DNA of 64,000 nucleotides from a bacterium (lineage in GTDB: Bacteria; Patescibacteriota; Minisyncoccia; UBA6257; GWB1-50-10), in NCBI GenBank assembly GCA_021814165.1, contig JAKAIX010000002.1:5371-69370 (forward strand), in the 5' to 3' direction. Below are positions 1,225-30,540 of this stretch, piece after piece; the first letter of the stretch is position 1; every line of letters begins with the position of its first letter. The notes under the pieces are model-generated. The model had not been told where the DNA came from. It did not search any database and saw nothing but the letters and a program-made list of their open reading frames with translations. The position numbers and the translations under genes are program-made.

Positions 1225-1740
1225 ATGATAGAAGTAACCCGCACCAAACTTGAAGGCGTGCTGCTCGTAAAGCCGTCAATAAACGAGGATTTCAGGGGAA
1301 AATACGTTGAGACATATAACGAAGAGGAATATCGCGCAAAAGGAATAGCCGCGCACTTTGTGCAGGACGACATTTCGGTTTCGTCCCGCGGCGTACTTCG
1401 CGGAATCCACGGCGATAAGACAACATGGAAATTAATATCATGCCTCAGGGGGAGGTTCTATTTTGTGGTGGTAAACTGCGACGAGACATCGCCCCAATTC
1501 CGCGAGTGGGAGTCGTTCGTGCTGACGGAAGAAAATCAGTGGCAGGTGCTCGTGCCCCCGAAATTCGGAAACGCGCACCTCGCATTGAGCGACGAAATTG
1601 TCTTTCATTACAAGCAATCAACGTACTACGATCCGGGGAGCCAGTTCAGCTATCGCTGGGATGATCCGCAATTCGGAATCTGGTGGCCGATCAAGAATCC
1701 CCTCCTTTCTCCCAGAGACGAAGGAAAAAAGCGGGATTAA
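1225..1740 (+). CDS. RmlC-like cupin sugar-nucleotide 3,5-epimerase (dTDP-4-dehydrorhamnose 3,5-epimerase family)
   Basis: Start moved to the internal ATG at 1225 (MIEVTRTKLEGVLLVKP...). Motifs FRGKYVETYN, RGIHGDK and WQVLVPPKFGNAHLAL are diagnostic of the RmlC fold. The ORF-track N-terminal extension is Arg-rich junk. Confidence 0.8.
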   Translation: MIEVTRTKLEGVLLVKPSINEDFRGKYVETYNEEEYRAKGIAAHFVQDDISVSSRGVLRGIHGDKTTWKLISCLRGRFYFVVVNCDETSPQFREWESFVLTEENQWQVLVPPKFGNAHLALSDEIVFHYKQSTYYDPGSQFSYRWDDPQFGIWWPIKNPLLSPRDEGKKRD

Positions 1741-1744
1741 CGGC

Positions 1745-2557
1745 ATGTCCAAAAGGAAAAATCTTGTTCTGGGAGGAAAAGGATTCGTAGGCGCCGAACT
1801 CGTGCGGCTCCTTGAAGAGAAGGGCGAGGAAATAAGAATCATAGACAGAAAACTCGGCGACGACCTGAAACACGCCGAGAAATACGCGGAAATGTTCGAG
1901 TGGGCGGATCGCACATGGTTTATCGCCTGGGAGATAGGAATTTGGAAGCACGCAACCGATCCCGCGTATCAGATAGGCACTTTGGCCGCGAGCATCGATC
2001 TCTGCAAGTCCGTCTTCGGTGCATTGGAAAAAGCGAAGAAACCCTTCCTTTTCGTAAGCACCCAGTTCGCCGGATATCCGAGCGTTCTCGGATCGGTAAA
2101 GAGGGTCGGAGAAGTATGGACAACGCTTCTCGGCGGGCTCACCGCGCGTTTCTGGAACGTATACGGATTCGAGGAGATAGGAGAAAAAAGCCACGTGGTC
2201 CCCGATATGATCTATAATGCCCTTACCAAAAAACGTATCACGCTTCTCACGAACGGCGAAGAGACGCGGCAGTTTCTCTTCGTGAGGGATGCGGCGGAAG
2301 GACTCCTGCACCAATTTGAGACCGGGCAACCGGTTGCGGATATCACGAACGGCGAGTGGGTTTCGATAAAAAGCGTGGCGGACATGATCGCCGCAAAAAC
2401 GGGCACCGTGGTAGAAACCGGAGACGGAACCGGGCACGCTTCTTTTGCGGAACCAAAAAATATCCTCTCCGGATGGAGCCCTCGCTTTACTCTCGACGAG
2501 GGGCTGGCACTCACCATCGATCGCATACGAGAGTCGATGCAACAAAAACAAACATGA
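1745..2557 (+). CDS. short-chain NAD(P)-dependent sugar-nucleotide reductase/epimerase (RmlD-like size)
   Basis: Start moved to the ATG at 1745 (MSKRKNLVLGGKGFVGAELVRLLEEKGEEIRIID), a Rossmann GxxGxxG N-terminus. The 270 aa length is in the range of 4-keto-sugar reductases. Confidence 0.6.
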   Translation: MSKRKNLVLGGKGFVGAELVRLLEEKGEEIRIIDRKLGDDLKHAEKYAEMFEWADRTWFIAWEIGIWKHATDPAYQIGTLAASIDLCKSVFGALEKAKKPFLFVSTQFAGYPSVLGSVKRVGEVWTTLLGGLTARFWNVYGFEEIGEKSHVVPDMIYNALTKKRITLLTNGEETRQFLFVRDAAEGLLHQFETGQPVADITNGEWVSIKSVADMIAAKTGTVVETGDGTGHASFAEPKNILSGWSPRFTLDEGLALTIDRIRESMQQKQT

Positions 2558-3495
2558 CGAAAATACTTGTTACGGGAGGCGCGGGATATATCGGATCCGT
2601 ACTCGTGCCGATGTTGTTAAAAGAGGGGTATGAAGTTACGGTAATCGACAACTTCATGTACTCGCAGACGTCGCTTCTCGACGTTTGCTATCATCCGAAC
2701 CTCCATATCGCAAGAGGAGACGTGCGCGATGAAGAGGCCATGAAACGGCTCATGGAGGATGCGGAATTCATCATACCGCTCGCCTGCATCGTCGGCGCAC
2801 CGGCGTGCGACCGAGATCCGAGAGCGGCGCGGACGATAAATCTCGAGGCGGTGGAATTTATCCTAAAGACGCGCCATGCCTCCCAAAAAATCATTTTCCC
2901 GAACACCAACAGCGGCTATGGCAGATCAAAAGACGGGAGCGTGGCATTCTGCGACGAAACGACGCCTCTTAATCCCCTTTCGCTGTACGGAACACTCAAA
3001 GTCCAGGCAGAACAGGAAATATTGGCCGCGGGAAACGCCGTTACTTTCAGGCTGGCCACCGTATTCGGCATAAGCCCGAGAATGAGGCTGGATCTTCTCG
3101 TGAACGACTTCGTGTACCGGGCAATCACCGACAGGGCAGTCATTCTCTTCGAGCCGCATTTCAAACGGAATTATATCCACGTCCGCGACGTGGCAAACGC
3201 GTTCCTGCACGCGATAAAGAATTTCGAAACAATGAAAAATGAGCCGTACAATATCGGGCTGAGCGACGCGAACTTGAGCAAACGCGAGCTCTGCGAGGAA
3301 ATAAAAAAGCAGCTCCCCGATTTTGTGTTTATCGAATCGGAGATAGGAAAAGACGTGGATCAGCGCAACTATATGGTAAGCAACGAAAAAATAGAACGCA
3401 CCGGATTCAAACCCGCCATTTCAATCCAGGAGGGCATCACGGAACTTATAAAAGGATTCAAGATTATTCGTCGTACGGATTTCAGCAATCTTTAA
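2554..3495 (+). CDS. NAD-dependent epimerase/dehydratase family protein (extended SDR)
   Basis: Start at the ATG at 2554 overlaps the previous stop (ATGA). MTKILVTGGAGYIGSVLVPMLL Rossmann motif, 313 aa, SDR-type sugar-nucleotide modifying enzyme. Confidence 0.75.
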   Translation: MTKILVTGGAGYIGSVLVPMLLKEGYEVTVIDNFMYSQTSLLDVCYHPNLHIARGDVRDEEAMKRLMEDAEFIIPLACIVGAPACDRDPRAARTINLEAVEFILKTRHASQKIIFPNTNSGYGRSKDGSVAFCDETTPLNPLSLYGTLKVQAEQEILAAGNAVTFRLATVFGISPRMRLDLLVNDFVYRAITDRAVILFEPHFKRNYIHVRDVANAFLHAIKNFETMKNEPYNIGLSDANLSKRELCEEIKKQLPDFVFIESEIGKDVDQRNYMVSNEKIERTGFKPAISIQEGITELIKGFKIIRRTDFSNL

Positions 3496-3499
3496 ACTG

Positions 3500-4489
3500 A
3501 TGGTTATTTCACGCACCCCATTCCGCATCTCTTTCTTCGGGGGAGGTACGGATTACCCGGTCTGGTACACGACTCACGGCGGCGCCGTACTTTCGACCTC
3601 GATTAATAAATATTGTTACGTTACCTGCCGGTATTCTCCCCTGATACTCGAAAAAAGATACAAAGTAGCGTGGTCCAAGGTAGAATCCGTAAACGATGTC
3701 GAAGAAATCGAGCACCCTGTCGTAAGGGAAACAATAAAGCTTTTCGAGTTGAAGGAAGGCGTGGAGGTGCACTATATAGCCGATCTTCCCGCGCGAACGG
3801 GAATGGGTTCGAGTTCTTCGTTCACGGTCGGCCTGATCCACGCGCTTCACGCGCTCCTCGGAAAAACCGTATCAAAAAACCAGCTTGCGAAAGAGGCGAT
3901 CCGCGTGGAACGCGAATTACTGAAAGAGAACGTCGGGTCGCAGGACCAGGTTGCCGCCGCTTTCGGAGGACTCAACAAAATCACCTTCAACGCGCGCGAC
4001 GGATTTTCCGTTCACCCTATCGTCTTATCACCGGAGAAACTTGCGACACTGGAGAGCAACTTGCTCCTTCTTTTCACCGGTTTCTCAAGAAATACTTCCG
4101 AGATAAGTCAGGAGCAAATTAAGAACACTCCCTTGCTCGAGAGGGAGCTCACGAGGATGACTTCCATCGTCGATGAGGCTATAGAGATATTGAACGACTC
4201 CACGGAACGGCTCGACGATTTCGGACGCCTTCTCGACGAAGCGTGGCGGCTGAAACGGTCTTTCTCCTCCGTTATTACGCGCCCGGAGATCGATGAAATA
4301 TACGAGGCGGGAAAAAAGGCGGGAGCGCTTGGAGGAAAACTTCTCGGCGCGGGAGGAGGCGGCTTCATGCTTTTTTATGCAAAACCCGAAGTGCATGATG
4401 CAATCCGAAAAGCGCTGAAAAAATTTTTCTTCGTCCCCTTCCAGTTCGAGCATGCGGGAAGCCAAATCATACATTACCACCCCGACTGA
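3500..4489 (+). CDS. GHMP-family sugar kinase, HddA-like (D-glycero-D-manno-heptose 7-phosphate kinase candidate)
   Basis: 329 aa; GHMP motif PARTGMGSSSSFTVGLIHAL; C-terminal GAGGGGFMLFY motif; immediately followed by a sugar-1-P nucleotidyltransferase. Confidence 0.7.
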   Translation: MVISRTPFRISFFGGGTDYPVWYTTHGGAVLSTSINKYCYVTCRYSPLILEKRYKVAWSKVESVNDVEEIEHPVVRETIKLFELKEGVEVHYIADLPARTGMGSSSSFTVGLIHALHALLGKTVSKNQLAKEAIRVERELLKENVGSQDQVAAAFGGLNKITFNARDGFSVHPIVLSPEKLATLESNLLLLFTGFSRNTSEISQEQIKNTPLLERELTRMTSIVDEAIEILNDSTERLDDFGRLLDEAWRLKRSFSSVITRPEIDEIYEAGKKAGALGGKLLGAGGGGFMLFYAKPEVHDAIRKALKKFFFVPFQFEHAGSQIIHYHPD

Positions 4490-4532
4490 ACGTATGAGGC
4501 GCGCATCATCTTCCCGATCGCGTTTTCCCGAA

Positions 4533-5237
4533 ATGGATTTTGTAATCCTCTGCGGAGGGCTTGGAACGCGGCTCCGTACGACACTCCCGAATATGCCGAA
4601 AGCGCTCGCGCCCATTGCGGGGACCCCGTTTCTCGACATTCTCCTCCATCACCTCTTTAAGGCGGGGTTTAAGCGCATTATTCTCGCCGTAGGTCATCTT
4701 CAAAATCCCATCATCTCCCGCTATGGAAACGACTCCCGGATTTTGTTTGCAAAAGAACGCGAGCCGCTCGGTACGGGAGGTGCGGTGCGAAATGCGCGGC
4801 GTTTGATCAAAAGTCCCCATTTTTTCGTGGCAAACGGAGACACGTTCTCCGACGCGGATTACCAAAATTTTTTTACCGTTCACAAAACAAAAGGCGGCAT
4901 CGTCACGATGGGCATTACGCGGGCGGGCAGACGCACCGACGCGGGAAACATACTCACCGATGCGTCGGGACGCATTCTTTCATTTAAAGAGAAACGAGGC
5001 GCACGCTCCCGATCGGGAATCAGTGCGGGGCTTTATTGCATGAGACGGGAGGTTTTTGACGTTATGCCAAAACGAAAACGGTTCTCGCTTGAAGAAGAGG
5101 TTTTTTCCTCGCTCGCGCGGCAGGGGGTTCTCTTCGGCGTACCGATTAAACGCGAAGCAATCGACATCGGCACTCCTGCGCGATACGCACGCGCGAAACG
5201 CATCCTCAAGAAACATCGGCCGTCTTCCTTGCGATGA
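4533..5237 (+). CDS. sugar-1-phosphate nucleotidyltransferase, HddC-like (guanylyltransferase candidate)
   Basis: Start at the ATG at 4533 (MDFVILCGGLGTRLR...), the canonical G-x-G-T-R nucleotidyltransferase N-terminus. 234 aa. Its 3' end overlaps the convergent methyltransferase gene by 32 bp. Confidence 0.65.
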   Translation: MDFVILCGGLGTRLRTTLPNMPKALAPIAGTPFLDILLHHLFKAGFKRIILAVGHLQNPIISRYGNDSRILFAKEREPLGTGGAVRNARRLIKSPHFFVANGDTFSDADYQNFFTVHKTKGGIVTMGITRAGRRTDAGNILTDASGRILSFKEKRGARSRSGISAGLYCMRREVFDVMPKRKRFSLEEEVFSSLARQGVLFGVPIKREAIDIGTPARYARAKRILKKHRPSSLR

Positions 5238-11107: not shown

Positions 11108-13303
11108 TTAGAGACAAAAACGCATCAGCGCCCGGAAACTCTCATCTCCGTACATCAGATAAGAGTTCGGATCGCGCGAAGGAGGATAATGTTTCGCGTG
11201 TTGCGCGATAACGCCGAGCTGAGGAAGGAGCGTCACAAGCTCGCGAGGAAGTCCCGATATTGCAACGTAATAGTCAGCCCACTCCCTGATTTTTTCCCTC
11301 CATCCGAATCTGTCCGAAAACGCCTCAAGTTCCTCTCCCTCCCCCGTCCTCTTCCATTGTACGAGGAGGGGGGAAAATAGGAAATTGGCGAGATCAAAGA
11401 ACGGGGCGGCCTCCTTTTCAGCGTGTTCAAAATCAAGCATATGCATTACTCCCTTGCGATCAAGAACAAGGTTGCAGAGGTCATAATCCCCGTGCTCGAG
11501 GGAAAGAGGAATTTTGAAGTCCTTACACGATTCGAGAGCGCGGAGAAACGAATCATACGCTTCCTTCGTGTCGTCGTCATTTACCCGCGCAAGTACCTGA
11601 GCCGCCTGTTCTTTAGCGTGCGAGATGAACGCTTTTTTATCCAAAACCCCACCGCTCTCGGTCGAATGATGCAATTCCGCAAGCAATCGAATTCCCTGCC
11701 GTACGAAGGGATCGATCCTTCGAAGCCATCTCCTTGTCGCATAACCGCGCAACGAGCGGGCGATTTTCTCCGCAAATAAAGATCTGATTTTTATCTGTTT
11801 GGGAGAAAATGTCCTCAAGGTTTCCCACAACCGTATTCTCACCGGTTTCCCTTCAAGGTGCTTTATAATCTCGACCGGCGGTTCATGCTTTTCTTCGTGG
11901 ATCCCGAGAACGTCGGGGATGCGCGAAAGGAGCGACTCGCTCTTGATAAGAGACCGCGCATAGCGCACCATCTCCACTTCGTGACGAAGAAAAATTCCCG
12001 AATCGTCCTTTCTTCCGACTTTACAAAATAAGATAGGCGTTCCCTTGCTCGTATCGTACACCGTGAAGTGCGCCGGGTTTCTGTCATTCATTCTCGAGGG
12101 GGTCATCCTTGCCTTATAAGAACATGCGTCTCCCTTTAGGAATCCCGCGTTCCGGAGAAGCGAGATGATGCGCGATGGAGCGGGGTTGCGGGACGATTCC
12201 TTACGGAGAATTATTCCCAAGCTTGGAGAAAAGTATTTTTCGAGACGCCGGGGAAATAACCCCAAAACAAACGCGATTACTCTCCACCTCAAGCTGGTAT
12301 TCGATCCGCGAGATATCGGCGAGAGAACGCGATGGAAAATATCAAAAGGAGTAACACTGTCCATCGTATTGTAATGAGGGAAGACGGAGTACAAGGAAGA
12401 AACCTTGAAGCGTTCCTCCCGCGCGATTTTTTTCAACCCGCGCGGCGAATAAATGAACGTTCGATACGCGATTCCCTTTCTTTTTTTCGTAATCCAATTC
12501 GCAAGAACGCGGGGAAGCAGGGTAACGCAGTGCACGTTTACGTGATCGTCCGGCGTTCCCAAAAAATACTGGATTCCCAAACGGTTCTCAATCGTTATGC
12601 ATATCGCTCCCTCCGGCTTCAATACCCGGTATAATTCGCGGAGTGCCGCACGCTGCATGGATCTCGGATCGGGCTCCTTTCCCCTTTTCTCTTCGAATTT
12701 TCCCTCCCAATGTTTCTCAAGAACAACGTCTTGTATCACCCCAAGCCACTCGAATACGCCGTTTAAAACCACCAGATCGAACATGTTATCGGGAAAAGGG
12801 AGTTTCGCGTTCAAATCCGCGGCAACGGGATGAATATTCGAAAGACCTTCCTGCTCCGATCGGATTTTCAAAAACTCAAGCGTTTCAATCGTCTTATCAA
12901 GCGCATACACCTGCGCGTGGTACTGTGCCGCCGGAACCGCAATTCCTCCCCACATAGCTCCTCCGTCCAGGATTACCGCTTCTTTCCTTGCGGGCCAGAG
13001 AAACTGCATATCCCCTCTTGCAAGAGGAGTAAAATGCGCGCTATATTCGGGAATTATTTTTTTTGCGCTCGCCATCCAGTCGCCGCTCTCCTTTGCTTCC
13101 TTATTCAATCGTCTCATCGTGTCTCTGTTTACGTTGCACCAGTATCCGTCCTCGGGCATGAAATCCGGAATGCCACGTACCACTTTGTATGCCGCACCGC
13201 ATGCATTACAAAAAAGGCGCTCTGCCTCGATTTGCAGAGCCGCACCGCAGTTAGTGCACGAAAATGTCGGCTGTGATACCGAATTACCCTGTTGTGTTTT
13301 CAT
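11108..13303 (-). CDS. three-domain fusion: Trm112-like Zn-ribbon + class I SAM methyltransferase + C-terminal aminoglycoside/choline-kinase-like (APH-fold) kinase domain
   Basis: 731 aa. N-terminus CTNCGA...CNACGAAYKVVRGIPDFM (Trm112-like ribbon). Middle region LKPEGAICITIENRL (MTase motif post-II). C-terminus LSLEHGDYDLCNLVLDRKGVMHMLDFEHA resembles the HGDxxxxN catalytic loop plus the downstream D of APH/ChoK kinases. Confidence 0.6.
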   Translation of the reverse strand: MKTQQGNSVSQPTFSCTNCGAALQIEAERLFCNACGAAYKVVRGIPDFMPEDGYWCNVNRDTMRRLNKEAKESGDWMASAKKIIPEYSAHFTPLARGDMQFLWPARKEAVILDGGAMWGGIAVPAAQYHAQVYALDKTIETLEFLKIRSEQEGLSNIHPVAADLNAKLPFPDNMFDLVVLNGVFEWLGVIQDVVLEKHWEGKFEEKRGKEPDPRSMQRAALRELYRVLKPEGAICITIENRLGIQYFLGTPDDHVNVHCVTLLPRVLANWITKKRKGIAYRTFIYSPRGLKKIAREERFKVSSLYSVFPHYNTMDSVTPFDIFHRVLSPISRGSNTSLRWRVIAFVLGLFPRRLEKYFSPSLGIILRKESSRNPAPSRIISLLRNAGFLKGDACSYKARMTPSRMNDRNPAHFTVYDTSKGTPILFCKVGRKDDSGIFLRHEVEMVRYARSLIKSESLLSRIPDVLGIHEEKHEPPVEIIKHLEGKPVRIRLWETLRTFSPKQIKIRSLFAEKIARSLRGYATRRWLRRIDPFVRQGIRLLAELHHSTESGGVLDKKAFISHAKEQAAQVLARVNDDDTKEAYDSFLRALESCKDFKIPLSLEHGDYDLCNLVLDRKGVMHMLDFEHAEKEAAPFFDLANFLFSPLLVQWKRTGEGEELEAFSDRFGWREKIREWADYYVAISGLPRELVTLLPQLGVIAQHAKHYPPSRDPNSYLMYGDESFRALMRFCL

Positions 13304-13309
13304 AATGTG

Positions 13310-14044
13310 TCACGCGTTTCCGGAATCAAAATTATGGTATTTCTTCGCAACGAAGAGATTTGCCTTGAGAAGCCAGTAGAAGTTCCCGCAATCGAACCAT
13401 TCCCCTTTCAGTTTAAAGTAACTCAATTCGCCTCGCTCGAGATATACGCGATTAACATCCGTAATCTCGTACTCGCCCCGCTTTGAGGGCTTGAGCGTAT
13501 CGATGACATCGAATACATCGGGGTTGTACATATAAATCCCCACCGCGCACCAATTCGATTTCGGCGCAACGGGTTTTTCTTCTATGTCGATTACTTTTCC
13601 GTCTTTCATCTCGACGACGCCGTAATCCCGCGCCTCCGGATGCTCCTTGAGAAAAATGGCTGCCCCCTTCATTTTTTGGAACGCTTGAACCGGCTCTTTT
13701 AAGGAATCTTCGAATACGTTGTCGCCAAGTACCATGATGATTTTTTCTCCCTGGGCGAAATCTTTTGCGAGGCGGAGCGCATCGGCAAGACCGTTCGGAG
13801 CAAGCTGCACCGCATACCGAAGCCGCGCGCCGAGCCCCGATCCGTTATCGAGCAGGCTCGTAAAATGACTCATGTATTCGCCGCTTGTGACGATTAAGAT
13901 GTCGGTAACGCCCGCTTCGACGAGTTTCTCGATTGGAAAATAAATGAGCGGCTTGTTGTATACCGGCAAAAGGTGTTTGTTCGTGACCGCGGTCAAAGGA
14001 TGAAGACGCGATCCCGATCCCCCTGCTAAAATGACTCCTTTCAT
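13310..14044 (-). CDS. rmlA: glucose-1-phosphate thymidylyltransferase-like (short-form RmlA family)
   Basis: MKGVILAGGSGSRLHPLT N-terminus, 244 aa, directly downstream of rmlB. Confidence 0.75.
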   Translation of the reverse strand: MKGVILAGGSGSRLHPLTAVTNKHLLPVYNKPLIYFPIEKLVEAGVTDILIVTSGEYMSHFTSLLDNGSGLGARLRYAVQLAPNGLADALRLAKDFAQGEKIIMVLGDNVFEDSLKEPVQAFQKMKGAAIFLKEHPEARDYGVVEMKDGKVIDIEEKPVAPKSNWCAVGIYMYNPDVFDVIDTLKPSKRGEYEITDVNRVYLERGELSYFKLKGEWFDCGNFYWLLKANLFVAKKYHNFDSGNA

Positions 14045-14056
14045 ATCACTATTTTA

Positions 14057-15112
14057 TTATTTTGACATTGTACGATGACCTTTCCATAAATCAATATGCG
14101 GGTTAAAAACCCCGGTTCTTTTTCTCACCCTGTCGATCCATTCCCTATTATCGAGATACCACCGGATGGTAGCGGAAAACGCCTCGCGAAAATGCGTTGT
14201 AGGCCTCCAACCGAGTTCTTTTTTTATCTTCGACGCATCAATCGCGTATCGCCTGTCGTGCCCCGGGCGGTCTTTCACAAACTCGATCCATGACCGGTCG
14301 CGCTTGAACATGCGAAGGATGAGATCCGCGATTTCAAGGTTGCTCATCTCGTTATCGGCACCGATGTTATATACCTCCCCCGCCTTTCCTCTGAAAAGGC
14401 AGAGCCGCAGCGCTTCGCAATGGTCCAGCACGTAGATCCAGTCCCGCACGTTTTTCCCGTCGCCGTACATCGGGAGTTTCTTTCCTTCAATCATCCGCAA
14501 CACGAAAAAAGGAATGAGTTTTTCCGGGTACTGATACGGCCCGTAATTATTCGAGCAGTGCGTAACGACGACCGGCACTCCGAACGTGTTGTGATACGAC
14601 CGGCAAAGCATGTCACCGCCCGCTTTTGTCGCGGCGTACGGAACGTTCGGCGCAAACGCGGTCGTTTCCTTGAATTCCGATCGGGAACCGAGCGACAAGC
14701 TCCCGTACACTTCGTCCGTCGAAACCTGCACGTACTTTTCCACCCCCGGCATCGACTTTACCGCCTCGAGAATATTAAATACCCCCGCGACATTCGTGCT
14801 AATAAACTCTTTCGCGCCGACATGGATACTTCTGTCGACATGCGTCTCCGCCGCAAAATTAATGACGTGCGTCGGACGAAATTTCTTAAACGTTGCATCA
14901 ACCGCCGTTTTGTCTGCCACGTCGCCGCGAACGAATTGATAGCGGCGGTCGCGCGCGACGTCTTTCAGGTTATCGAGATTCCCCGAGTAGGTCAGTTTGT
15001 CGAAGTTTGCCACGCGACACCCGGGATGTCGCTTCAGAACGTATCGCACGAAATTCGAGCCAATAAAGCCGGCTCCCCCGAACACGAGTATTTTCACCGT
15101 CGATTTCATCGA
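14057..15112 (-). CDS. rmlB: dTDP-glucose 4,6-dehydratase
   Basis: Start at MKSTVKILVFGGAGFIGSNFV; YxxxK and the rest conserved (VSTDEVYG, CSNNYGPYQYPEKLIP, NVRDWIYVLDHC). Confidence 0.9.
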   Translation of the reverse strand, partial: SMKSTVKILVFGGAGFIGSNFVRYVLKRHPGCRVANFDKLTYSGNLDNLKDVARDRRYQFVRGDVADKTAVDATFKKFRPTHVINFAAETHVDRSIHVGAKEFISTNVAGVFNILEAVKSMPGVEKYVQVSTDEVYGSLSLGSRSEFKETTAFAPNVPYAATKAGGDMLCRSYHNTFGVPVVVTHCSNNYGPYQYPEKLIPFFVLRMIEGKKLPMYGDGKNVRDWIYVLDHCEALRLCLFRGKAGEVYNIGADNEMSNLEIADLILRMFKRDRSWIEFVKDRPGHDRRYAIDASKIKKELGWRPTTHFREAFSATIRWYLDNREWIDRVRKRTGVFNPHIDLWKGHRTMSK

Positions 15113-15153: not shown

Positions 15154-17130
15154 TCAAAAAACGCTTTTCTTTTCTACAAAATCGGCAACCGCGGCTGCCG
15201 CACGCTCCGCGGCGTTCCCGTCGAGTGCGGTCCCGTAACGGACGAGAAACTCATTATTCGAACAGTCCGCGGAATATGTCTTCTTCTCAAGCCATTGCAA
15301 CACAGAATTCATAAGAACATCGGGATCGTCGGCGCATACCGCTCGTTTGTAAAGCAGCCGCTTCGCGTCCTCGGAGAGACCGAGATTTTTCGTAAGGCAG
15401 AACACCGGCACCGGGTACGTAACCGCCTGTATCACGGTCGTGCTCGGCATGTCGACGATAATCGCATCCGCGCAGGAAAAAAGATCCATCGTACCGACGC
15501 TCGATCTGATCTCAACTATCCCCTTCGATGCGAACGAATGTACATAGCGGTCAAGTCCCGATACGGCGTATGACCGTGTCGGATGGAGTTTCACTATCTT
15601 CGTTCCCCGCATTTCCGCAAGCCGTCCGATGATCGTTCGCTGCGCGTCATAAATGGAATTGTCGGACCACGGCACCGAATTGAAGGGGTATGCGTGGCTC
15701 AGATAATACATCGTGGTCGCATACACGATGCAAGGGCGTGGCGCATTCGTAACTCCCGCGCGGACGAGGGTTGCGTTCATGTCGACGGCTTCGCGCATTG
15801 CGCCGCTCCGCAACACATCGATACTCGCCGAACCCACGACTTTTAGCTCTTTCTTCAAGCCGAGCCCCTGAAGAGCTCTCCTGCGGTTCTCTTCCGATCC
15901 CTCGGCCCAATCCAGAAAGAGATCGGCTGCAGCCGCGTCATCGAGGGTCAACGACCCGATCGGCTGGTAATTCAGGTCGCCGTGCTGCCAACCGATTACC
16001 GGAATTGAGAGATCCTGTGCGGCTTTCGCGATACTTTTTGCGATGGGCGTCGGCGCGATCGAGAAAAGGAGCGCGCGGATTTTTTTCTTCCGGAAGAATT
16101 TCCGCGTCCTATCGTATGCGTGAAGCGACGCGGGCACGATCATGTGCAAAAAGAAGGAGATTCTCCCCCGGAAAAACGGAAAAAGGCAAAGGTCGCCGTC
16201 ACTCATGCTTTTTCGGAACGACGGAGACGTTTCGAGTTCTTTTAATAACGTTTCAAAGATACCGGCGTAGGAGGAACCGCACGACCATCGTTCCAGAGTT
16301 CCTTCGATCTGCCCCGATACCGAGTATCCTTTCCGGAAGAGCGCCTGGCCGGCAAAATTCCAATCATAGCCGCCCGAGAGGAGAATGACCGGCCTCGAAC
16401 GCAGCTGCTTCCGGAAAAGACGCACGGCGCGGGAAAATGACGTCGATCGGGCGATATTCACGAAATAAAAGAGTTGGGGGGATTTCTGGACTAGTTTTCT
16501 TAGAAACGAAAGGGAATCCGATTTTGACAAACGTCGGGAAGAAACGGTTTCCGAACCGGGATTCGTAATCTTCACCGTTTCGGAAGGCGCGAGGAGCGGG
16601 AGTATTTTCGAAAAAAGATTTTCACGGGGATTCCACAGCGACCCTTCGTCGGCACGACGCGCCTGAACGAGCGCGCCGCATGAATCGGAGAAATAACCCA
16701 CCGCGTCCGGCAGTTCCCGTGCAATGATGTTCCTCGCCTGGAACAAAACGGTCCCCAGCGAGAGAAAATTCGCGGTAAACGCGTTCAATCCGTACCACGC
16801 GAGCCGAAGCCCGCGTTCGCGGATCGGGGGGAGTTTTTCCGAAAGCGAAGAATCTATTTCCCGTACCGCGGCGATACATTGCTTCTCCAATCCTTCGGAA
16901 TACGAGGAAAGCTCATTGGATTCGTAGTACTCTTCGGGAATACGATACGAAAATTTCGCGGCATCGAACACGAATCGCGGTTCGACCGACGTCGGTATCA
17001 CAATGCACTTGTTCGCCGATATCGAGTCGCGCCTTGCGAGGATTTCCTTCGCGTGCGCCTCGGTGTGGGCAAAAAGAAGAAGTTTTCCTTCTCTCGATAA
17101 AAACTCCTGGAGATCGACGTCGTTATTCAT
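15154..17130 (-). CDS. large hypothetical GT-B-like protein with a C-terminal HP motif (candidate CMP-nonulosonate / capsule-type glycosyl- or glycerophospho-transferase)
   Basis: 658 aa. The C-terminal region IVKLHPTRSY..DAIIVDMPSTT resembles the HP motif of TagF, KpsS and sialyltransferase-like GT-B enzymes. Assignment is by motif only. Confidence 0.35.
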   Translation of the reverse strand: MNNDVDLQEFLSREGKLLLFAHTEAHAKEILARRDSISANKCIVIPTSVEPRFVFDAAKFSYRIPEEYYESNELSSYSEGLEKQCIAAVREIDSSLSEKLPPIRERGLRLAWYGLNAFTANFLSLGTVLFQARNIIARELPDAVGYFSDSCGALVQARRADEGSLWNPRENLFSKILPLLAPSETVKITNPGSETVSSRRLSKSDSLSFLRKLVQKSPQLFYFVNIARSTSFSRAVRLFRKQLRSRPVILLSGGYDWNFAGQALFRKGYSVSGQIEGTLERWSCGSSYAGIFETLLKELETSPSFRKSMSDGDLCLFPFFRGRISFFLHMIVPASLHAYDRTRKFFRKKKIRALLFSIAPTPIAKSIAKAAQDLSIPVIGWQHGDLNYQPIGSLTLDDAAAADLFLDWAEGSEENRRRALQGLGLKKELKVVGSASIDVLRSGAMREAVDMNATLVRAGVTNAPRPCIVYATTMYYLSHAYPFNSVPWSDNSIYDAQRTIIGRLAEMRGTKIVKLHPTRSYAVSGLDRYVHSFASKGIVEIRSSVGTMDLFSCADAIIVDMPSTTVIQAVTYPVPVFCLTKNLGLSEDAKRLLYKRAVCADDPDVLMNSVLQWLEKKTYSADCSNNEFLVRYGTALDGNAAERAAAAVADFVEKKSVF

Positions 17131-17946: not shown

Positions 17947-18816
17947 TTACTTTCTCCTGAGTTTCTGTTTTATGGGGATCTCGCTCTCGTAAACCTTCTT
18001 TACTCCGTCTCCAAGGGAAGACTCGAGCGCGCGGATATCGTTCACTATTCTCTCAAATCCCTGTCGCTCGACGGAGGCGGCCTGATCGCTCCCCCACATC
18101 GCCCGATCAAGGGTGATGTGACGTTCAACGAGACACGCGCCGAACGCTACCGATCCGGTCGTCGGAATCAACCCGACTTCGTGGCCCGAATATCCGACAG
18201 GTACCTCGTACCGCGAGCGCAGGAAAGGAATAACCCGGATATTCAGCTCCTCGAGTTTCGAAGGATACGTACTTGTCGCATGAAGTACTATCAAGTCGTC
18301 TTTTCCGAGTACCTCAACCGCATGATCGATTTCTTCAACCGTACTCATGCCCGTCGAGAGAATTACCGGTTTCCCTTTCGATCTGATGTGGCGCAGAAGA
18401 CCGTCATCCGTGAGAGATGCCGAGGCAATTTTATAGCAAGGCACGTTGAATTTCTCCAAAAAATCGACGCTCGCTTCGTCCCACGGAGAAGCAAACCAGA
18501 TGATTCCTTTTTCCTTGCAATAGCGATCTATTTCTTTGTATGCGTCCTCGCCGAACTCCAACCCGCGTTTCAAATCGCCGTTTGTGGGACCAAACGGATT
18601 CTCTCGCGGTTTCGCGAGCTCTTCAGGCGTATAAACGACGTCAACCGTGCGTTTCTGGAACTTCACCGCGTCGCATCCGGTAGCCACCGCGGTATCGATG
18701 AGTTTTTTTGCGATGTCTATATCACCATTGTGATTAATACCGATCTCCGCCACGACGAAAGTCGGGCATCCGTCTCCTACCAGTTTATTGCCGATTTTTA
18801 CCGTTTTTTTATCCAT
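17947..18816 (-). CDS. NeuB-family nonulosonic acid (sialic/pseudaminic/legionaminic/KDN-type) synthase
   Basis: FVVAEIGINHNGDIDIAKKLIDTA..CDAVKFQKR are NeuB TIM-barrel hallmarks; 289 aa without the antifreeze-like C-terminal domain. Confidence 0.85.
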   Translation of the reverse strand: MDKKTVKIGNKLVGDGCPTFVVAEIGINHNGDIDIAKKLIDTAVATGCDAVKFQKRTVDVVYTPEELAKPRENPFGPTNGDLKRGLEFGEDAYKEIDRYCKEKGIIWFASPWDEASVDFLEKFNVPCYKIASASLTDDGLLRHIRSKGKPVILSTGMSTVEEIDHAVEVLGKDDLIVLHATSTYPSKLEELNIRVIPFLRSRYEVPVGYSGHEVGLIPTTGSVAFGACLVERHITLDRAMWGSDQAASVERQGFERIVNDIRALESSLGDGVKKVYESEIPIKQKLRRK

Positions 18817-18871
18817 AGTGTTATATCTTCGGGCGACAATTCATTTATTCACGAAACGATATCGAAGTCAA

Positions 18872-19444
18872 CTATGCGAAAAGTTCTTTCTCTACGAGTT
18901 CGCAGATTATATGCCCCGCGGTGATATGAGCTTCCTGGATCCGCGGCGTATTTGTCGAAGGAATCAAAAGAAGAATATCCGCTTCCCCCTTGAGTTTCCC
19001 TCCGGTCTCTCCCGTAAACGCGATCGTCACCGCACCGAGCGAGCGGGCTTTTTTGATTCCGCGGATCACGTTTTCGGCATTTCCGCTCGTGCTTATGCCG
19101 ATTACGACGTCTTCTTTTGTCACAATCCCTTCCACTTGACGCTCAAAAACCGCACCGTAATCGTAATCGTTTCCTATCGCGGTCAGAATCGAGGTGTTCG
19201 TGGTAAGTGCGAAAGCGGGCAAACTCTTTCGTTCGATTTTGAATCGCCCGGCGAGTTCCGCGGCAATATGCTGGGCATCGGCGGCGCTGCCTCCGTTTCC
19301 GAAAATAACGAGTTTGCCTCCCTTCCGATACGACCCGACGATTGAGCTCGTTATCTCCGCGATGACGGAAACGCAAAGGGATGAGACTTTCCTCATCGTC
19401 TCCTCGTGCTCTTGTAGTCGTTCATTGATGTTTTCTTCTTCCAT
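18872..19444 (-). CDS. SIS-domain sugar-phosphate isomerase, GmhA-like (sedoheptulose-7-P isomerase family)
   Basis: 190 aa; GNGGSAADAQH and ISTSGN are canonical GmhA/SIS motifs. Confidence 0.75.
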   Translation of the reverse strand: MEEENINERLQEHEETMRKVSSLCVSVIAEITSSIVGSYRKGGKLVIFGNGGSAADAQHIAAELAGRFKIERKSLPAFALTTNTSILTAIGNDYDYGAVFERQVEGIVTKEDVVIGISTSGNAENVIRGIKKARSLGAVTIAFTGETGGKLKGEADILLLIPSTNTPRIQEAHITAGHIICELVEKELFA

Positions 19445-19447
19445 ATA

Positions 19448-19930
19448 CTAGCCGAGAATAACGTCCGCGACTTCCCTGAATACTCCTTCTCCTCCTTTTG
19501 TCTTTGTTACATAATCCGCGATTTTCCGAACTGCGGGATGCGCATCTTTTGGCGCAATCGCAAAACCGACCCTCTTCATACATTCGATGTCAGTCACGTC
19601 ATTTCCTACAAAACAACTCTTTTTGAGGTCGACCTTACTTTTCTTCGCCACGCTCAAGAGACATTTTAATTTGTCGTCCACGCCGGTAAAACATTTAATC
19701 TTTAATTTCTTACATCGGATTTTTGCGACAGGGTTTCTTTCTTTTGAAATGACTACGCACGGAATTCCTTTTTTCTTGAGCATTCCGAGCCCCAAACCGT
19801 CCGCGCGGGAGCAAAACACGCTTTCCTTTCCGTTCTGATCAACGAGCACGCGATCGTCCGTCATCACGCCATCGAAGTCGGAGAAGATGAAAGCCACGGA
19901 TTTTATTTTTTTGAATGCGTTCCGGCTCAT
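19448..19930 (-). CDS. HAD-IIIA phosphatase, KdsC family (Kdo-8-P / KDN-9-P phosphatase-like)
   Basis: 160 aa; FIFSDFDGVMTDD (HAD motif I) and KdsC-like length and motifs. Confidence 0.8.
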   Translation of the reverse strand: MSRNAFKKIKSVAFIFSDFDGVMTDDRVLVDQNGKESVFCSRADGLGLGMLKKKGIPCVVISKERNPVAKIRCKKLKIKCFTGVDDKLKCLLSVAKKSKVDLKKSCFVGNDVTDIECMKRVGFAIAPKDAHPAVRKIADYVTKTKGGEGVFREVADVILG

Positions 19931-21036: not shown

Positions 21037-21987
21037 TTACACTTTCGGCCAAAGAGCCGGATCTACCTGATAAGAATCGTCTATCGCGAGTTCGCGCAGC
21101 GCACGAAGCGCCGCTTCATCCAGGGGACCCGCTTCCACTGCCTCGGCAATCGATTCCAGATGCTCCGGTTGGTTTGTGCCGACGAGCACGGTCGCGATCG
21201 CATCATTCGATATTGCAAAACGAATCGCGAGCGAAGGAAGGTCAGTCCCCAGTTCGCGGGCGATACGTTCCGCCTCGTCCGCGTTCTCTTTGAGTAACGC
21301 AAGCTCGTCGGGCAATTTCTCCCGAAGAGGAGTGAGCGATCCCTTTAAAAACACGGAACGGTTCACGACGCCGATATTTTTTTCCTTCGCGAGCGGTAAG
21401 ACCCGATGAGTCATGCGTTGGTCAAGTATGCTGTGTGCAACTTGAATTACGTCGAAAAAGCCGCTTTCTACGGCGGCGAGAGCATTATCTTCTCCGCGAA
21501 GCGATATGCCGAAATATTCCACTTTTCTCTCGTTGCGAAATTTCTCGAGAATAGCGAGTATTTCTCCCCTCTCGATATCCTCTCTCGTGCCGCCGTGGAG
21601 ATAGAGGAGCGGCAGCGTTGAGAGGCCGAGCTTTGCCAAACTCTCTTCGATCTCGCTCCTCATACGCGCTTCCATCTCGCCAGGTGACAACTTCTCCCCT
21701 TTTTCCAGAAATTGGGCGCATTTCGTACCGACAAGAACTTTCCTATCGTTGAGGATTCCCGATTTCCCGATACGTTCCTCCGAGAGAGAGTAGGCGTGTG
21801 CGGTATCGAAATACGAAATGCCCATCCCTGCGGCGTATTGTAGGAGATTTCTTGCTTCTTCATCGGAAGGGAGATGCCGTTCTCCGATGCCGTAGGTGAA
21901 GCCGATTTCCGCTGTTCCAAGACCCAAAAGGGAGATGTTTCTTCCCGTATGACCGAGTGTCCGCTCCGGTATTTTGTTTTTACTCAT
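21037..21987 (-). CDS. aldo/keto reductase
   Basis: LGHTGRNISLLGLGT..FDTAHAY are AKR family signatures. Confidence 0.75.
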   Translation of the reverse strand: MSKNKIPERTLGHTGRNISLLGLGTAEIGFTYGIGERHLPSDEEARNLLQYAAGMGISYFDTAHAYSLSEERIGKSGILNDRKVLVGTKCAQFLEKGEKLSPGEMEARMRSEIEESLAKLGLSTLPLLYLHGGTREDIERGEILAILEKFRNERKVEYFGISLRGEDNALAAVESGFFDVIQVAHSILDQRMTHRVLPLAKEKNIGVVNRSVFLKGSLTPLREKLPDELALLKENADEAERIARELGTDLPSLAIRFAISNDAIATVLVGTNQPEHLESIAEAVEAGPLDEAALRALRELAIDDSYQVDPALWPKV

Positions 21988-22828
21988 GGAAATATTTTTT
22001 TATATACCGTTCCGTAAACTCCTTGTGCCTCATCACCGTCTCTCTCTCCTTCCCCTCTTCTCCTCGCGCGGACTGCAGGATAAATCCTCCCGCATATTTT
22101 TTTTCCTTGAGTCCGCGGAAGAGACCGTCGAAATCGGCATCTCCGGCCCCGAGCTCGACCGTAGATCCGCCCCGAATCCTGTCTTTTATATGCACGTTCG
22201 AGACAATATCTCCGTAAGCCATAATTTCATCGTAATTATTATAACCGAGTGACGCGCTGTTCCCTGAATCATAGACCACCTTTACACGCGGGCTCCGGGT
22301 GCGTTTCACGAGAGCAAGGAGTCGTTCCGCCGGCAAATCGGTTTCGAGCGCGAGAGTAATGTCTCTTTGTTCCGCCATTTCCAAACATTCTCCGAGAGAT
22401 TCCACGAATAATAATTCTTCTTCGGGGGTTCGTATGGAAGAGTTGTCGAGAAGAGGAATTTCAACGGTCTTCGCGCCTATCCGGCCAGCAACTTCAATCA
22501 ATCGATTCAATACGGCAACATTGGCGTTTCTCACCGGCTCGCTTACCCGGAAAAACGGACTGCGCATAAAATAGTCCGCGCAGATATGGCGGACCCACAC
22601 CCCGTGATGCTCCTGTAATCTTCTGATTTGTGAAACGCCTTCCGGGCTCCAGAGCGGGTTTCTCTCGTGCTGGTCTTCATCAAAAATGAATTCTATTTCA
22701 TCGAGCCCGAGTTCTTCCGCCGAAGCAAATTCACGCTCCCATTCCTCGAAGGGGAAAAATTGAATGCCGCGTCCCGCGGGGGGCACTAACCTCCCTTGCA
22801 TGATACCGATGGGAAATCTCTTTTCCAT
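21980..22828 (-). CDS. sugar phosphate isomerase/epimerase (xylose-isomerase-like TIM barrel)
   Basis: Start at MEKRFPIGIMQGRL; AP-endonuclease-2 / TIM-barrel-like pattern; 8-nt overlap with the AKR gene. Confidence 0.6.
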   Translation of the reverse strand: MEKRFPIGIMQGRLVPPAGRGIQFFPFEEWEREFASAEELGLDEIEFIFDEDQHERNPLWSPEGVSQIRRLQEHHGVWVRHICADYFMRSPFFRVSEPVRNANVAVLNRLIEVAGRIGAKTVEIPLLDNSSIRTPEEELLFVESLGECLEMAEQRDITLALETDLPAERLLALVKRTRSPRVKVVYDSGNSASLGYNNYDEIMAYGDIVSNVHIKDRIRGGSTVELGAGDADFDGLFRGLKEKKYAGGFILQSARGEEGKERETVMRHKEFTERYIKKYFHE

Positions 22829-22833
22829 GCGAT

Positions 22834-23670: not shown

Positions 23671-23748
23671 ACCAAGAGTATATTACAACAAATACCCCGG
23701 TACAACCGGTTTGAAGTCGATCGGAAAAAACAGTATTATAACGACATA

Positions 23749-25020: not shown

Positions 25021-25032
25021 CGGGCGGTTTTT
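25003..25032. terminator. bidirectional rho-independent terminator between convergent genes
   Basis: The sequence aaaaaaccgc-tcgttaacgg-gcggtttttt is a GC stem flanked by A and T runs; it overlaps both stop codons. Confidence 0.5.
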
Positions 25033-28969: not shown

Positions 28970-29064
28970 AATTACCAATTTTTCAATTTCCAATGATCAA
29001 TTAATTTTAAAATCGTTCAATTGAATTATTCATTGAAAATTGGAAATTGGTCATTGAAAATTTA
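28970..29064. repeat. intergenic inverted heptad-array element, copy A
   Basis: Left arm ttttcaatttccaatgatcaatt; AT-rich spacer; right arm cattgaaaattggaaattggtcattgaaaat; fills the whole stop-to-start gap. Confidence 0.8.
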
Positions 29065-30420: not shown

Positions 30421-30423
30421 AAC

Positions 30424-30532
30424 AGTGAATTATCAATTTTCAATTTCCAATGATCAATTGATTTTAAAATTATTTAATTGAATCATTTATCGAAAATTGG
30501 AAATTGGCCATTGAAAATTTATACTCCTTTCC
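30424..30532. repeat. intergenic inverted heptad-array element, copy B
   Basis: caattttcaatttccaatgatcaattg ... cgaaaattggaaattggccattgaaaat; between a stop (30541) and a start (30420). Confidence 0.8.
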
Positions 30533-30540
30533 ATTATACC

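Follow-up and report, generated by a model that had tools for sequence, protein, structure and literature searches.

Among described systems, those closest to the locus analysed here are the modified-heptose pathway of C. jejuni, represented by Cj1427 and Cj1430, and the GDP-6-deoxy-heptose pathways of C. jejuni 81-176 (DdahA/B/C), Y. pseudotuberculosis (DmhA/DmhB) and B. pseudomallei (WcbK/WcbJ with WcbL/WcbM/WcbN/GmhA). A four-step heptose route described in 2001 from a bacterium without LPS and the RmlABCD synthesis of dTDP-L-rhamnose also bear comparison. Cj1427 is the C. jejuni GDP-heptose C4-dehydrogenase, and its reaction has been described (PMC10680097). In the window, the whole stretch of 64,000 nucleotides of DNA from an uncultured Patescibacteria (CPR) bacterium that was analysed, a five-gene operon at 1225-5237 probably supplies the committed steps of a modified-heptose pathway of the Campylobacter type, a useful annotation that would represent a variant of a known pathway and not a new kind of system. 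The locus matches the C. jejuni modified-heptose pathway in its logic and in the kinds of enzyme it encodes, with a relative of Cj1427, a kinase and a nucleotidyltransferase resembling HddA and HddC, and no dehydratase, so that the 6-hydroxyl would be retained. It differs in that the window kinase belongs to a sister clade (about 30-35% identity), that the GmhA and GmhB genes lie outside the operon, and that the host is a CPR bacterium, whereas C. jejuni is Gram-negative with a capsule. Relatives of its ClpB place the source organism in CPR, and an LPS-core demand for heptose is therefore not expected.

In the proposed pathway, GmhA would convert sedoheptulose-7-P to D-glycero-D-manno-heptose-7-P, an HddA-like kinase would phosphorylate C1, a GmhB-type phosphatase encoded upstream of the window would take off the 7-phosphate, and the nucleotidyltransferase (NT) would form an NDP-heptose, with GDP assumed by analogy. 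The short-chain dehydrogenase SDR2 would oxidise C4 without dehydration in the manner of Cj1427, a cupin would epimerise the 4-keto intermediate at C3 and/or C5, and SDR1 would reduce C4, giving an NDP-D-glycero-heptose of altered configuration with its 6-hydroxyl retained, which neighbouring glycosyltransferases, a flippase and Wzy-type proteins may build into a surface glycan. Such a 6-hydroxy heptose is the likely product because SDR2 is Cj1427-like, the cupin is of the heptose type, and the kinase and NT are HddA/HddC-like. What the analysis shows is family membership, motifs, trees and conserved neighbourhoods of genes; each substrate, the nucleotide, the product's stereochemistry, what SDR1 does and the use of GmhA and GmhB genes at a distance are inferred. 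The start from sedoheptulose-7-P and the end in a surface glycan are shared with the 2001 route; here, in contrast, the NDP-heptose would be remodelled further by an oxidase, an epimerase and a reductase, and the genes are spread over about 22 kb. The GDP-6-deoxy-heptose pathways share the front end (GmhA, GHMP heptokinase, phosphatase and guanylyltransferase), and solved structures of WcbL and of the Y. pseudotuberculosis HddC rank among the best matches of the window proteins.

All open reading frames named in the first-pass annotation were recovered to within a few bases, and the five genes of the operon are real and tightly packed on the plus strand. A single transcription unit is plausible, since the intergenic gaps are 4, -4, 4 and 43 nt; the ATG of SDR2 overlaps the stop codon of SDR1 (ATGA). 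A minus-strand cluster starting at 5206 is convergent with the operon. The NT start at 4533 fits the family N-terminus (MDFVILCGGLGTRL); gene callers chose an upstream ATG at 4452. Within the window, no second copies of the operon, GmhA, HAD or RmlA/RmlB genes were found, nor was a GmhB-type gene.

SDR2 (2554-3495, plus strand) matched PDB entries 6VO6 and 6VO8, whose titles name Cj1427, over its full length (E = 1e-111; 56% identity over 311 residues). For a nucleotide-heptose pathway this match, which was not available to the first-pass annotation, is a stronger argument than the cupin, kinase and NT assignments. Both proteins carry the motif PNTNSGYG, and Y145 and K149 of SDR2 are likewise common to both. 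At this site, RmlB- and Gmd-type 4,6-dehydratases have ST(D/S)E (STDEVYG or STSEVYG), with N-S in SDR2 and Cj1427 taking the place of the D/E-E acid/base pair of the dehydratases. On the basis of its sequence, SDR2 is predicted to be an NDP-heptose C4-dehydrogenase that keeps the 6-hydroxyl. The first-pass annotation had entertained a 6-deoxy-heptose product. Such a pathway, known from C. jejuni 81-176, Y. pseudotuberculosis and B. pseudomallei, combines a 4,6-dehydratase with an epimerase and a reductase, and both the resemblance of the cupin epimerase and SDRs to DdahABC/MlghBC and weak Pfam matches of SDR2 to the GDP_Man_Dehyd family point that way. This option is highly improbable, and 6-deoxy-heptose is not supported as the product given the PNTNSGYG motif of SDR2 and an operon that has no Gmd-type 4,6-dehydratase. 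A bona fide RmlB for dTDP-glucose (455 bits; cut-off 365) is the window's sole 4,6-dehydratase; it is paired with RmlA and with a DegT aminotransferase having the catalytic Lys, and where a Gmd-like dehydratase is present in related CPR loci it is an extra gene.

The cupin (1225-1740, plus strand), predicted to be an NDP-4-keto-heptose C3/C5 or mono-epimerase of the MlghB/DdahB/Cj1430 type, matched PF00908 at 165 bits and the RmlC equivalog at 139.7 bits, under the cut-off of 155.75. Among solved structures, it is closest to C. jejuni MlghB, DdahB and Cj1430 (7AN4, 7ANG and 7M14; E = 3e-35), with an archaeal RmlC barely behind. In a neighbour-joining tree, it groups with the C. jejuni heptose epimerases apart from RmlC with a bootstrap of 100/100, which bears out the first-pass preference for a nucleotide-heptose pathway over dTDP-rhamnose. 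LRGIHGD and G-N-x-H are common to the cupin and the C. jejuni heptose epimerases, whereas RmlCs adjoining rmlAB have AHGF at the N-x-H site. The catalytic residues of Cj1430/MlghB/DdahB are also shared (the cupin retains H62, K69, N116, Y129 and D165), and H118 is the counterpart of DdahB His123, which has been proposed to bind the C7 hydroxyl (PMC7949155). The guanine contacts of MlghB/DdahB, N22/T33/K54, are replaced by S18/E29/D49, which has an RmlC-like look, and because the cupin is without these residues the nucleotide may not be GDP. The N-terminal nucleotide-binding stretch and the QDDxSxS motif look RmlC-like as well, features that would fit synthesis of dTDP-L-rhamnose or a 6-deoxyhexose relative, in which the cupin, as an RmlC, would take the product of RmlB as its substrate and either SDR1 or SDR2 would be the RmlD-type reductase. 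In the RmlABCD pathway, too, an NDP-4-keto sugar is the substrate of a cupin epimerase of this superfamily, and an SDR acts next. The window has rmlA and rmlB but neither rmlC nor rmlD, and loci of Tagaea and the Azospirillum group have a Cj1427-like gene immediately ahead of rmlC-rmlA-rmlB. Even so, this is the least probable of the readings considered, and rhamnose was rejected as the product: the cupin lies outside the RmlC clade, the RmlD profile reached at best 41 bits against the operon SDRs (cut-off 224), and no rml genes accompany the conserved cupin-SDR2-kinase-NT block. The separate rmlA-rmlB pair described at first pass is indeed present in the convergent cluster (RmlA, 13310-14044; RmlB, 14057-15109 or 15157), but the adjacent DegT aminotransferase and methyltransferases already account for it.

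For the GHMP kinase (3500-4489, plus strand), the top NCBIfam profile was HddA at 139.5 bits, compared to 85 for fucokinase and mevalonate kinase, and the best solved relatives were three HddA/WcbL structures (3K85, WcbL 4USK and C. jejuni 4N3O; E = 1e-41 to 1e-35). The kinase retains the catalytic Arg (R9) and Asp (GSQDQ), and its clade, which has no characterised member, is the sister group of the characterised HddAs as a whole. The NT (4533-5237, plus strand), HddC/ManC-like, has counterparts following the kinase in many related loci. It scored 139 bits against mannose-1-P guanylyltransferase and 121.6 bits against HddC, both under cut-off; its best solved relative is the Y. pseudotuberculosis HddC (6JQ8/5XHW; E = 1e-27), in line with the HddC-like label of the first-pass annotation. 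By analogy its nucleotide would be GTP. The pathway may be served by this NT or by another, since a second NT adjoins the GmhB-type gene and a homologue of GDP-mannose 3,5-epimerase, a user of GDP-mannose, is also encoded in the window. Curated equivalog cut-offs were reached by none of the proteins matched to HddA (139.5 bits of 600), HddC (121.6 of 300), GmhA (194 of 209) or GmhB (140 of 178).

SDR1 (1745-2557, plus strand) is the operon's one odd enzyme. Previously taken as RmlD-like, it proved to be a 270-aa atypical extended SDR with only weak Epimerase matches in Pfam and with Leu115 in place of the catalytic Tyr (L115-G-S-V-K119); it does not resemble GDP-fucose synthase and shows no relationship to the GFS-like enzymes that serve as reductases in C. 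jejuni. AlphaFold predicts an extended-SDR fold for it (pLDDT 91), and comparison with solved structures returned no close relative (18-22% identity). Homologues form about 100 clusters, mostly in CPR, with LG(V/S)(T/V)K in the CPR subclade and YGVTK in distant members. SDR1 is presumed to be the C4-ketoreductase. Alternatively, SDR2 could oxidise C4 with bound NAD+ and re-reduce the epimerised keto-sugar with the retained NADH, a redox-neutral scheme of two enzymes in which SDR1, having no Tyr, would be no reductase and would have another catalytic role or none. The Leu throughout the CPR subclade, the tight binding by Cj1427 of its own NADH (PMC10680097), and a contiguous cupin-SDR2-kinase-NT block without SDR1 at locus L006 are consistent with this scheme, but other SDRs lie near the L006 block, and SDR1 is clearly conserved, retaining the Rossmann motif, Ser/Thr and Lys. 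Moreover, all five other CPR loci examined encode an SDR1 homologue at a distance of 1-4 kb from a Cj1427-like SDR, and three of them (L085, L168 and L170) have no nearby cupin, as would suit an oxidase/reductase pair. The two-enzyme scheme and the non-reductase role of SDR1 are, jointly, distinctly unlikely.

GmhA (18872-19444, minus strand), a SIS protein and predicted sedoheptulose-7-P isomerase, is by its sequence genuine and is the sole copy near the operon, matching TIGR00441 at 194 bits (cut-off 209) and the B. pseudomallei GmhA at E = 3.5e-51, with all catalytic Zn ligands (H/E/Q/H) and D61 conserved. Its earlier placement in the heptose route may hold, without being exclusive to the operon, because the gene is embedded in a conserved NeuB/KdsC module. 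It groups with NeuB-associated GmhAs and is probably shared with, or mainly serves, that NeuB-like/KdsC-like module. The HAD protein at 19448-19930 in the convergent cluster, formerly proposed as the pathway phosphatase, was rejected as a GmhB-type heptose-bisphosphate phosphatase, as it belongs to the KdsC/YrbI family (TIGR01670, 114 bits, over the cut-off of 107) and the pairing of its gene with the neighbouring NeuB-like gene is conserved: of 45 related loci, 34 show it together with a NeuB-like synthase. A GmhB-type HAD gene (140 bits to GmhB; cut-off 178) is located upstream, ~2.1-2.65 kb before position 1 of the window, and the operon may draw on these distant GmhA and GmhB genes.

Across other genomes, tblastn found an HddA-like kinase nearby in 61 of the 80 loci with a Cj1427-like gene, and the kinase formed the most frequent neighbour family once genes had been called and clustered (45/61 loci). 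GmhA was within 10 kb in only 19 of the 80, which would agree with a non-heptose sugar, the kinase and NT activating, for instance, a free hexose such as mannose by a salvage-type route without a phosphatase, and SDR2, the cupin and SDR1 remodelling an NDP-hexose. The uncharacterised kinase clade, the operon's lack of a phosphatase gene, the slightly higher NT score for mannose-1-P guanylyltransferase than for HddC, and the acceptance of GDP-mannose-derived substrates by DdahB and MlghB (PMC7949155) all lean the same way. Loci L005, L013, L016 and L073 each have two such kinases, one of which adjoins GmhA, and therefore leave room for a different substrate of the window-type kinase. We nevertheless consider a non-heptose sugar unlikely: window-type kinases (51-60% identity) are the sole kinase in operons with GmhA and GmhB at L007, L009, L065, L076/77, L079 and L168, the cupin has the proposed ligand of the heptose C7 hydroxyl, a His, GDP-heptose is the substrate of SDR2's closest characterised relative (PMC10680097), and the GmhA and GmhB-type genes beside the cluster have no other obvious use in a CPR genome. 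As to the modified-heptose pathway, kinase, GmhA, GmhB, NT and SDR2 genes form single operons at L065, L076/77, L079 and L168. The first three have the complete set as NT-GmhB-kinase-SDR2-GmhA or similar, with kinases 51-53% identical to that of the window, and the order in L168, a CPR locus, is GmhA-SDR2-x-SDR1-GT2-kinase-GmhB-NT. The window GmhA is 63% identical to the GmhA of L169, which is itself directly upstream of a heptose-type cupin.

The operon on the plus strand encodes a 171-aa cupin (1225-1740), two SDR proteins of 270 aa (SDR1, 1745-2557) and 313 aa (SDR2, 2554-3495), the ATG of the second overlapping the stop codon of the first as ATGA, a 329-aa GHMP kinase (3500-4489), and a 234-aa nucleotidyltransferase (4533-5237), for which the gene callers used an upstream ATG at 4452. 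A promoter search, in which the number of sites was not above that in shuffled sequence, placed a sigma-70-like site at 1189-1218, directly before the cupin start. SDR2 is the most diagnostic gene of the operon. Its product aligned over the full length, with 56% identity and an E value of 1e-111, to PDB 6VO6 and 6VO8, which are Cj1427, the C. jejuni heptose C4-dehydrogenase, according to the entry titles in the fold search. SDR2 and Cj1427 have in common PNTNSGYG as well as Y145 and K149 of the extended-SDR YxxxK motif. At the PNTNSGYG site, the RmlB of the window reads STDEVYG and a Gmd-like enzyme STSEVYG, while SDR2 has N-S, indicating that the acid/base pair for 4,6-dehydration is missing, which argues for a 6-hydroxy heptose and against a 6-deoxy product. 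A search of the operon for a Gmd-like 4,6-dehydratase found none, the sole dehydratase in the window being the RmlB equivalog. The GDP-6-deoxy-heptose pathway, in contrast, has a Gmd-like dehydratase with a T/S-D/E-E motif, so the 6-deoxy-heptose option of the first-pass annotation lacks its dehydratase and is not supported. In C. jejuni, the action of Cj1427, which carries tightly bound NADH recycled by alpha-ketoglutarate in a ping-pong mechanism, is followed by epimerization at C3/C5 by Cj1430 and reduction at C4 by Cj1428 (PMC10680097). The pathway logic is already known from that organism; here, an NDP-heptose would be oxidized at C4 by SDR2, epimerized by the cupin, and reduced at C4 by SDR1, keeping the 6-hydroxyl.

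By bit score, the cupin was barely closer to the heptose epimerases of C. jejuni (124.9 bits) than to an RmlC from an archaeon (119.4 bits), and its score against the RmlC equivalog model was 139.7 against a cut-off of 155.75. It was therefore placed by an alignment of cupins lying beside Cj1427-like genes, cupins lying beside rmlA/rmlB, MlghB, an HS-type epimerase, and the M. thermautotrophicus RmlC. One clade, with a bootstrap of 100/100, held the C. jejuni enzymes together with the window cupin and its relatives from CPR bacteria (57-66% identity). Its members share LRG(I/L)HGD and G/A-N-x-H; the corresponding RmlC motifs are LRGLHxQ and A-H-G-F. This placement, together with the lack of an RmlD-like protein (the best RmlD score was 41 bits against a cut-off of 224), excludes dTDP-rhamnose synthesis, a pathway whose RmlC and RmlD equivalogs are both absent here, and upholds the earlier proposal of a nucleotide-heptose rather than a plain dTDP-rhamnose operon; the same RmlD score speaks against the label "RmlD-like" given to an SDR of the operon. 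The rmlAB pair is accounted for by the adjacent DegT aminotransferase, in which the Lys is present, and methyltransferases. The MlghB/DdahB residues His67, Lys74, Asn121, Tyr134, Asp173, and His123 are all kept, as H62, K69, N116, Y129, D165, and H118, while the equivalent of Tyr132 is Phe127. His123 of DdahB, the His of the N-x-H motif, was proposed to hydrogen bond to the heptose C7 hydroxyl (PMC7949155). The guanine contacts N22, T33, and K54 are not kept, being S18, E29, and D49 in the cupin, and its QDDxSxS stretch is RmlC-like, so the specificity of MlghB/DdahB would not be simply transferable and the nucleotide carrier may not be GDP.

SDR1 gave only weak, split Epimerase-family matches in Pfam, and its AlphaFold model (pLDDT 91) has a generic extended-SDR fold with no solved relative above ~22% identity. 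It scored 38.5 bits against the GFS model, with a cut-off of 500, and is without the Ser-Tyr-Lys triad, having Leu115 for Tyr; a Tyr-less SDR reductase is unusual. The homologues, which formed ~100 clusters and were mostly from CPR bacteria, have a canonical YG(V/S)TK in their distant members, while the CPR subclade has Leu at the Tyr position (L115-G-S-V-K119 in the window) and keeps the Gly-rich motif, S105, and K119. A Cj1427-like SDR (65-71% identity) lay 1-4 kb away in all five of the other CPR loci fetched for SDR1 homologues, with the kinase present in four of them; one had the order GmhA-SDR2-x-SDR1-GT2-kinase-GmhB-NT (L168) and another SDR1-cupin-SDR2 (L087). This constant pairing, which includes cupin-free loci, leads us to infer that SDR1 is the C4-reductase. 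An alternative is a redox-neutral scheme in which SDR2 itself re-reduces the epimerized keto-sugar with its retained NADH; it appears improbable, since in three of the five CPR loci a cupin was not seen close by, as would be expected if the two SDRs work as an oxidase and a reductase. With SDR1 as the presumed reductase, the operon differs from the C. jejuni system, where the C4-reductase is a GDP-fucose-synthase homologue with Ser-Tyr-Lys, and the Tyr-less family is a candidate for a new class of NDP-ketosugar reductase. As a candidate for a GFS-like reductase, the SDR at 27335-28333, the sole GFS-superfamily member in the window, was considered and rejected as a GDP-mannose 3,5-epimerase homologue (E 3e-91); the SDR upstream of the window is GalE-like. 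The Tyr-less subclade was strictly tied to Cj1427-like dehydrogenases (L085, L087, L168-L170), and family members with Tyr (e.g., Aurantibacillus, L086) were found in unrelated glycan contexts.

The kinase had HddA as its best NCBIfam model, as the first-pass annotation had predicted, and HddA-type structures as its best solved relatives (3K85, WcbL, and C. jejuni 4N3O; E 1e-41 to 1e-35). The HddA score of 139.5 bits was above the 85 bits for fucokinase and mevalonate kinase but far below the cut-off of 600. The WcbL paper gives R13 and D163 as catalytic, the 7-phosphate residues not being given there, and both the Arg and the Asp are kept in the window kinase. In a tree rooted on fucokinase, the characterized HddAs formed one clade and all kinases beside Cj1427-like genes, including that of the window, formed its sister clade. 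For the nucleotidyltransferase, the best solved relative was Y. pseudotuberculosis HddC (E 1e-27), and of two sub-cut-off NCBIfam scores, that for ManC-type mannose-1-P guanylyltransferase (139 of 440) was slightly higher than that for HddC (121.6 of 300). The sole serious rival to the heptose reading is that these two enzymes act on a non-heptose substrate, which we regard as unlikely; for the kinase, the gene context supports a predicted heptose-7-phosphate kinase function.

That context was drawn from a genome scan with SDR2, limited to one genome per species, in which at least 384 stretches contained a Cj1427 relative. In the best 80 of these (57-72% identity), tblastn of the fetched flanks found an HddA-like kinase in 61, a GmhA-like gene in 19, and a GmhB-like gene in 12. 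Gene calling with ATG-first starts and clustering in 61 loci gave as neighbor families the kinase (45), a DegT/ColD-like PLP enzyme (43), a nucleotidyltransferase (29), another SDR (26), and a cupin (21), followed by rarer TPP-dependent E1/transketolase-like, B12-radical-SAM, and GmhA (14) families. Compact, full sets of pathway genes occurred as NT-GmhA-kinase-SDR2 (L065), GmhB-GmhA-kinase-SDR2 (L076/L077), and NT-GmhB-kinase-SDR2-GmhA (L079), all with window-type kinases of 51-53% identity, and a Parcubacteria locus (L006) has a contiguous cupin-SDR2-kinase-NT as in the window, without SDR1. From the wide spread of Cj1427 homologues, usually with this kinase clade, it would seem that many rare sugars branch off from 4-keto-heptose intermediates as a common hub. 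The genes (L005-L084) were found in Patescibacteria, Omnitrophota, Elusimicrobiota, Azospirillum, Magnetospirillum, Tagaea, Rokubacteria, and others. Frequent companions were ColD-like PLP enzymes with His for the catalytic Lys (e.g., L044), split transketolase or E1-like TPP enzymes, and B12-radical-SAM proteins, a possible sign of heptoses that are 3-deoxy, branched, or C-methylated. MAGs of Tagaea, Rhodospirillales, and Azospirillum (L036, L041, L049, L061-L063, L066, L081) have an RmlC-type cupin, rmlA, and rmlB directly after the Cj1427-like gene, and the HddA-like kinase lies upstream in divergent orientation. Each of four loci (L005, L013, L016, L073) has a pair of HddA-like kinases: one branches at the base of the clade and adjoins GmhA, and the other is window-type and adjoins a nucleotidyltransferase or TPP enzymes. 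For this reason sub-functionalization of the kinase may have occurred; L013 and L016 also have two Cj1427-like paralogues.

Entry into the pathway had been attributed to a GmhA-like SIS protein (18872-19444) and a HAD phosphatase (19448-19930) on the minus strand. The SIS protein is a genuine GmhA, matching the B. pseudomallei enzyme at E 3.5e-51 with the four Zn ligands (His/Glu/Gln/His) and D61 kept (equivalents of D61, H64, E68, Q175, and H183 are present), at a score 15 bits below the TIGR00441 cut-off. The HAD protein is of the KdsC/YrbI type. A GmhB-type (histidinol-phosphatase-type HAD-IIIA) phosphatase was sought in the window and none was found; one lies 2.1-2.65 kb before the window start, adjoining a second nucleotidyltransferase, and scored 140 bits against the GmhB model (cut-off 178). 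The GmhA and the KdsC-type phosphatase lie together at 17947-19930 (-) with a NeuB-like synthase (17947-18816) that is short, at 289 aa, and lacks a SAF domain. Nearby genes, including 21037-25781, encode a PtmA-like SDR, a xylose-isomerase-like TIM barrel, an aldo-keto reductase, a class-III aminotransferase, and a PseF/NeuA-like cytidylyltransferase (25032-25781). When metagenomes were scanned with the short NeuB-like protein, at least 570 relatives (66-76% identity) were obtained, and neighbors were counted in the 45 loci that reached 6 kb or more: a KdsC-like HAD in 34, a PtmA-like SDR in 21, a GmhA-like gene, frequently the immediate neighbor, in 20, a TIM barrel in 16, and a cytidylyltransferase in 13, with an HddA-like kinase sought and found in none. 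In the GmhA tree, copies from NeuB and heptose loci were intermixed, with the window copy among the NeuB-associated ones, and in one locus (L169) a GmhA 63% identical to that of the window lies directly upstream of a heptose-type cupin. These results assign the HAD to the NeuB module rather than to the heptose pathway and indicate that the GmhA, while genuine, is probably shared by the two.

The NeuB module, which is widely conserved, might make an ulosonic acid from a phosphorylated substrate, beginning with heptose-7-phosphate. In the fullest form of this reading, condensation of heptose-7-phosphate (C7) with PEP would give a 3-deoxy-ulosonic acid phosphate of ten carbons, followed by dephosphorylation and CMP activation, and the GmhA would not be, or not only be, the entry to NDP-heptose; one GmhA product would then feed two pathways in the cluster. 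We consider this reading unlikely. Alternatively, the GmhA may stand in as a mannose-6-phosphate-forming isomerase for Kdn-9-P. A literature search found no description of a natural C10 ulosonic acid class and nothing usable on Kdn-9-P clusters. The GmhA-like gene and the PtmA-like SDR were also considered as the PtmF/PtmA pair of the legionaminic acid pathway, and this was rejected because PtmF is a 326-aa oxidoreductase and not a SIS protein.

The host is evidently a CPR bacterium, as the closest relatives of its ClpB (38000-40660; 74-78% identity) are proteins named Minisyncoccia, Jorgensenbacteria, Paceibacterota, and Patescibacteria; the window lies on contig DAIBYO010000002.1 of assembly GCA_027423885.1. 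The CPR host, the kinase clade, and the presumed use of a Tyr-less SDR family in place of the GFS-type reductase are what is new relative to C. jejuni. To our knowledge, Campylobacter capsules are the only setting in which Cj1427-type chemistry has been elucidated, and the literature searched contained no report of such remodeling outside that genus. The one mention of heptose biosynthesis in a survey of freshwater CPR genomes is an "ADP-heptose" module in Paceibacteria (PMC9166423). NCBI-derived records often give the HddA-like sister clade as plain "kinase" and JGI records as "heptose-7-phosphate kinase"; the SDR1 family is labeled only generically.

Since CPR bacteria live as uncultured episymbionts and have very small genomes, the tens of kilobases spent on elaborate surface glycans would be relevant to host attachment. 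The operon converges on a long minus-strand glycan cluster that encodes methyltransferases, GT1 and GT2 glycosyltransferases, a DegT aminotransferase, a cytidylyltransferase, RmlA, RmlB, the short NeuB-like synthase, SIS, HAD, aldo-keto reductase, TIM-barrel, and SDR proteins, a NUDIX protein, a GDP-mannose 3,5-epimerase homologue, and two Wzy_C proteins. The glycan island extends past the window edge, since the GmhB-type HAD and the second, MurU/ManC-like nucleotidyltransferase (source contig 3071-4371, 2.1-3.4 kb upstream of window position 1) and, beyond them, a GalE-like epimerase and a Wzx-type flippase all lie outside. The region between the rmlAB/DegT genes and the NeuB module also encodes a 731-aa protein (11108-13303, -) with an N-terminal methyltransferase and a weak APH-type kinase-like region and a 658-aa protein (15154-17130, -) with no Pfam match. 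The homologue of plant GDP-mannose 3,5-epimerase (27335-28333, -; E 3e-91 to 2C59) adjoins a glycosyltransferase and the NUDIX protein and suggests that GDP-L-galactose or GDP-L-gulose may also be made in the cluster; it would need a source of GDP-mannose, which complicates the assignment of the two nucleotidyltransferases. The two Wzy_C proteins, which resemble O-antigen ligases/polymerases and have 452 and 836 aa, are consecutive at 29062-33051 (-) and 33175-36627 (-), and are followed by a 1150-aa protein whose sole recognizable domain is peptidoglycan-binding.
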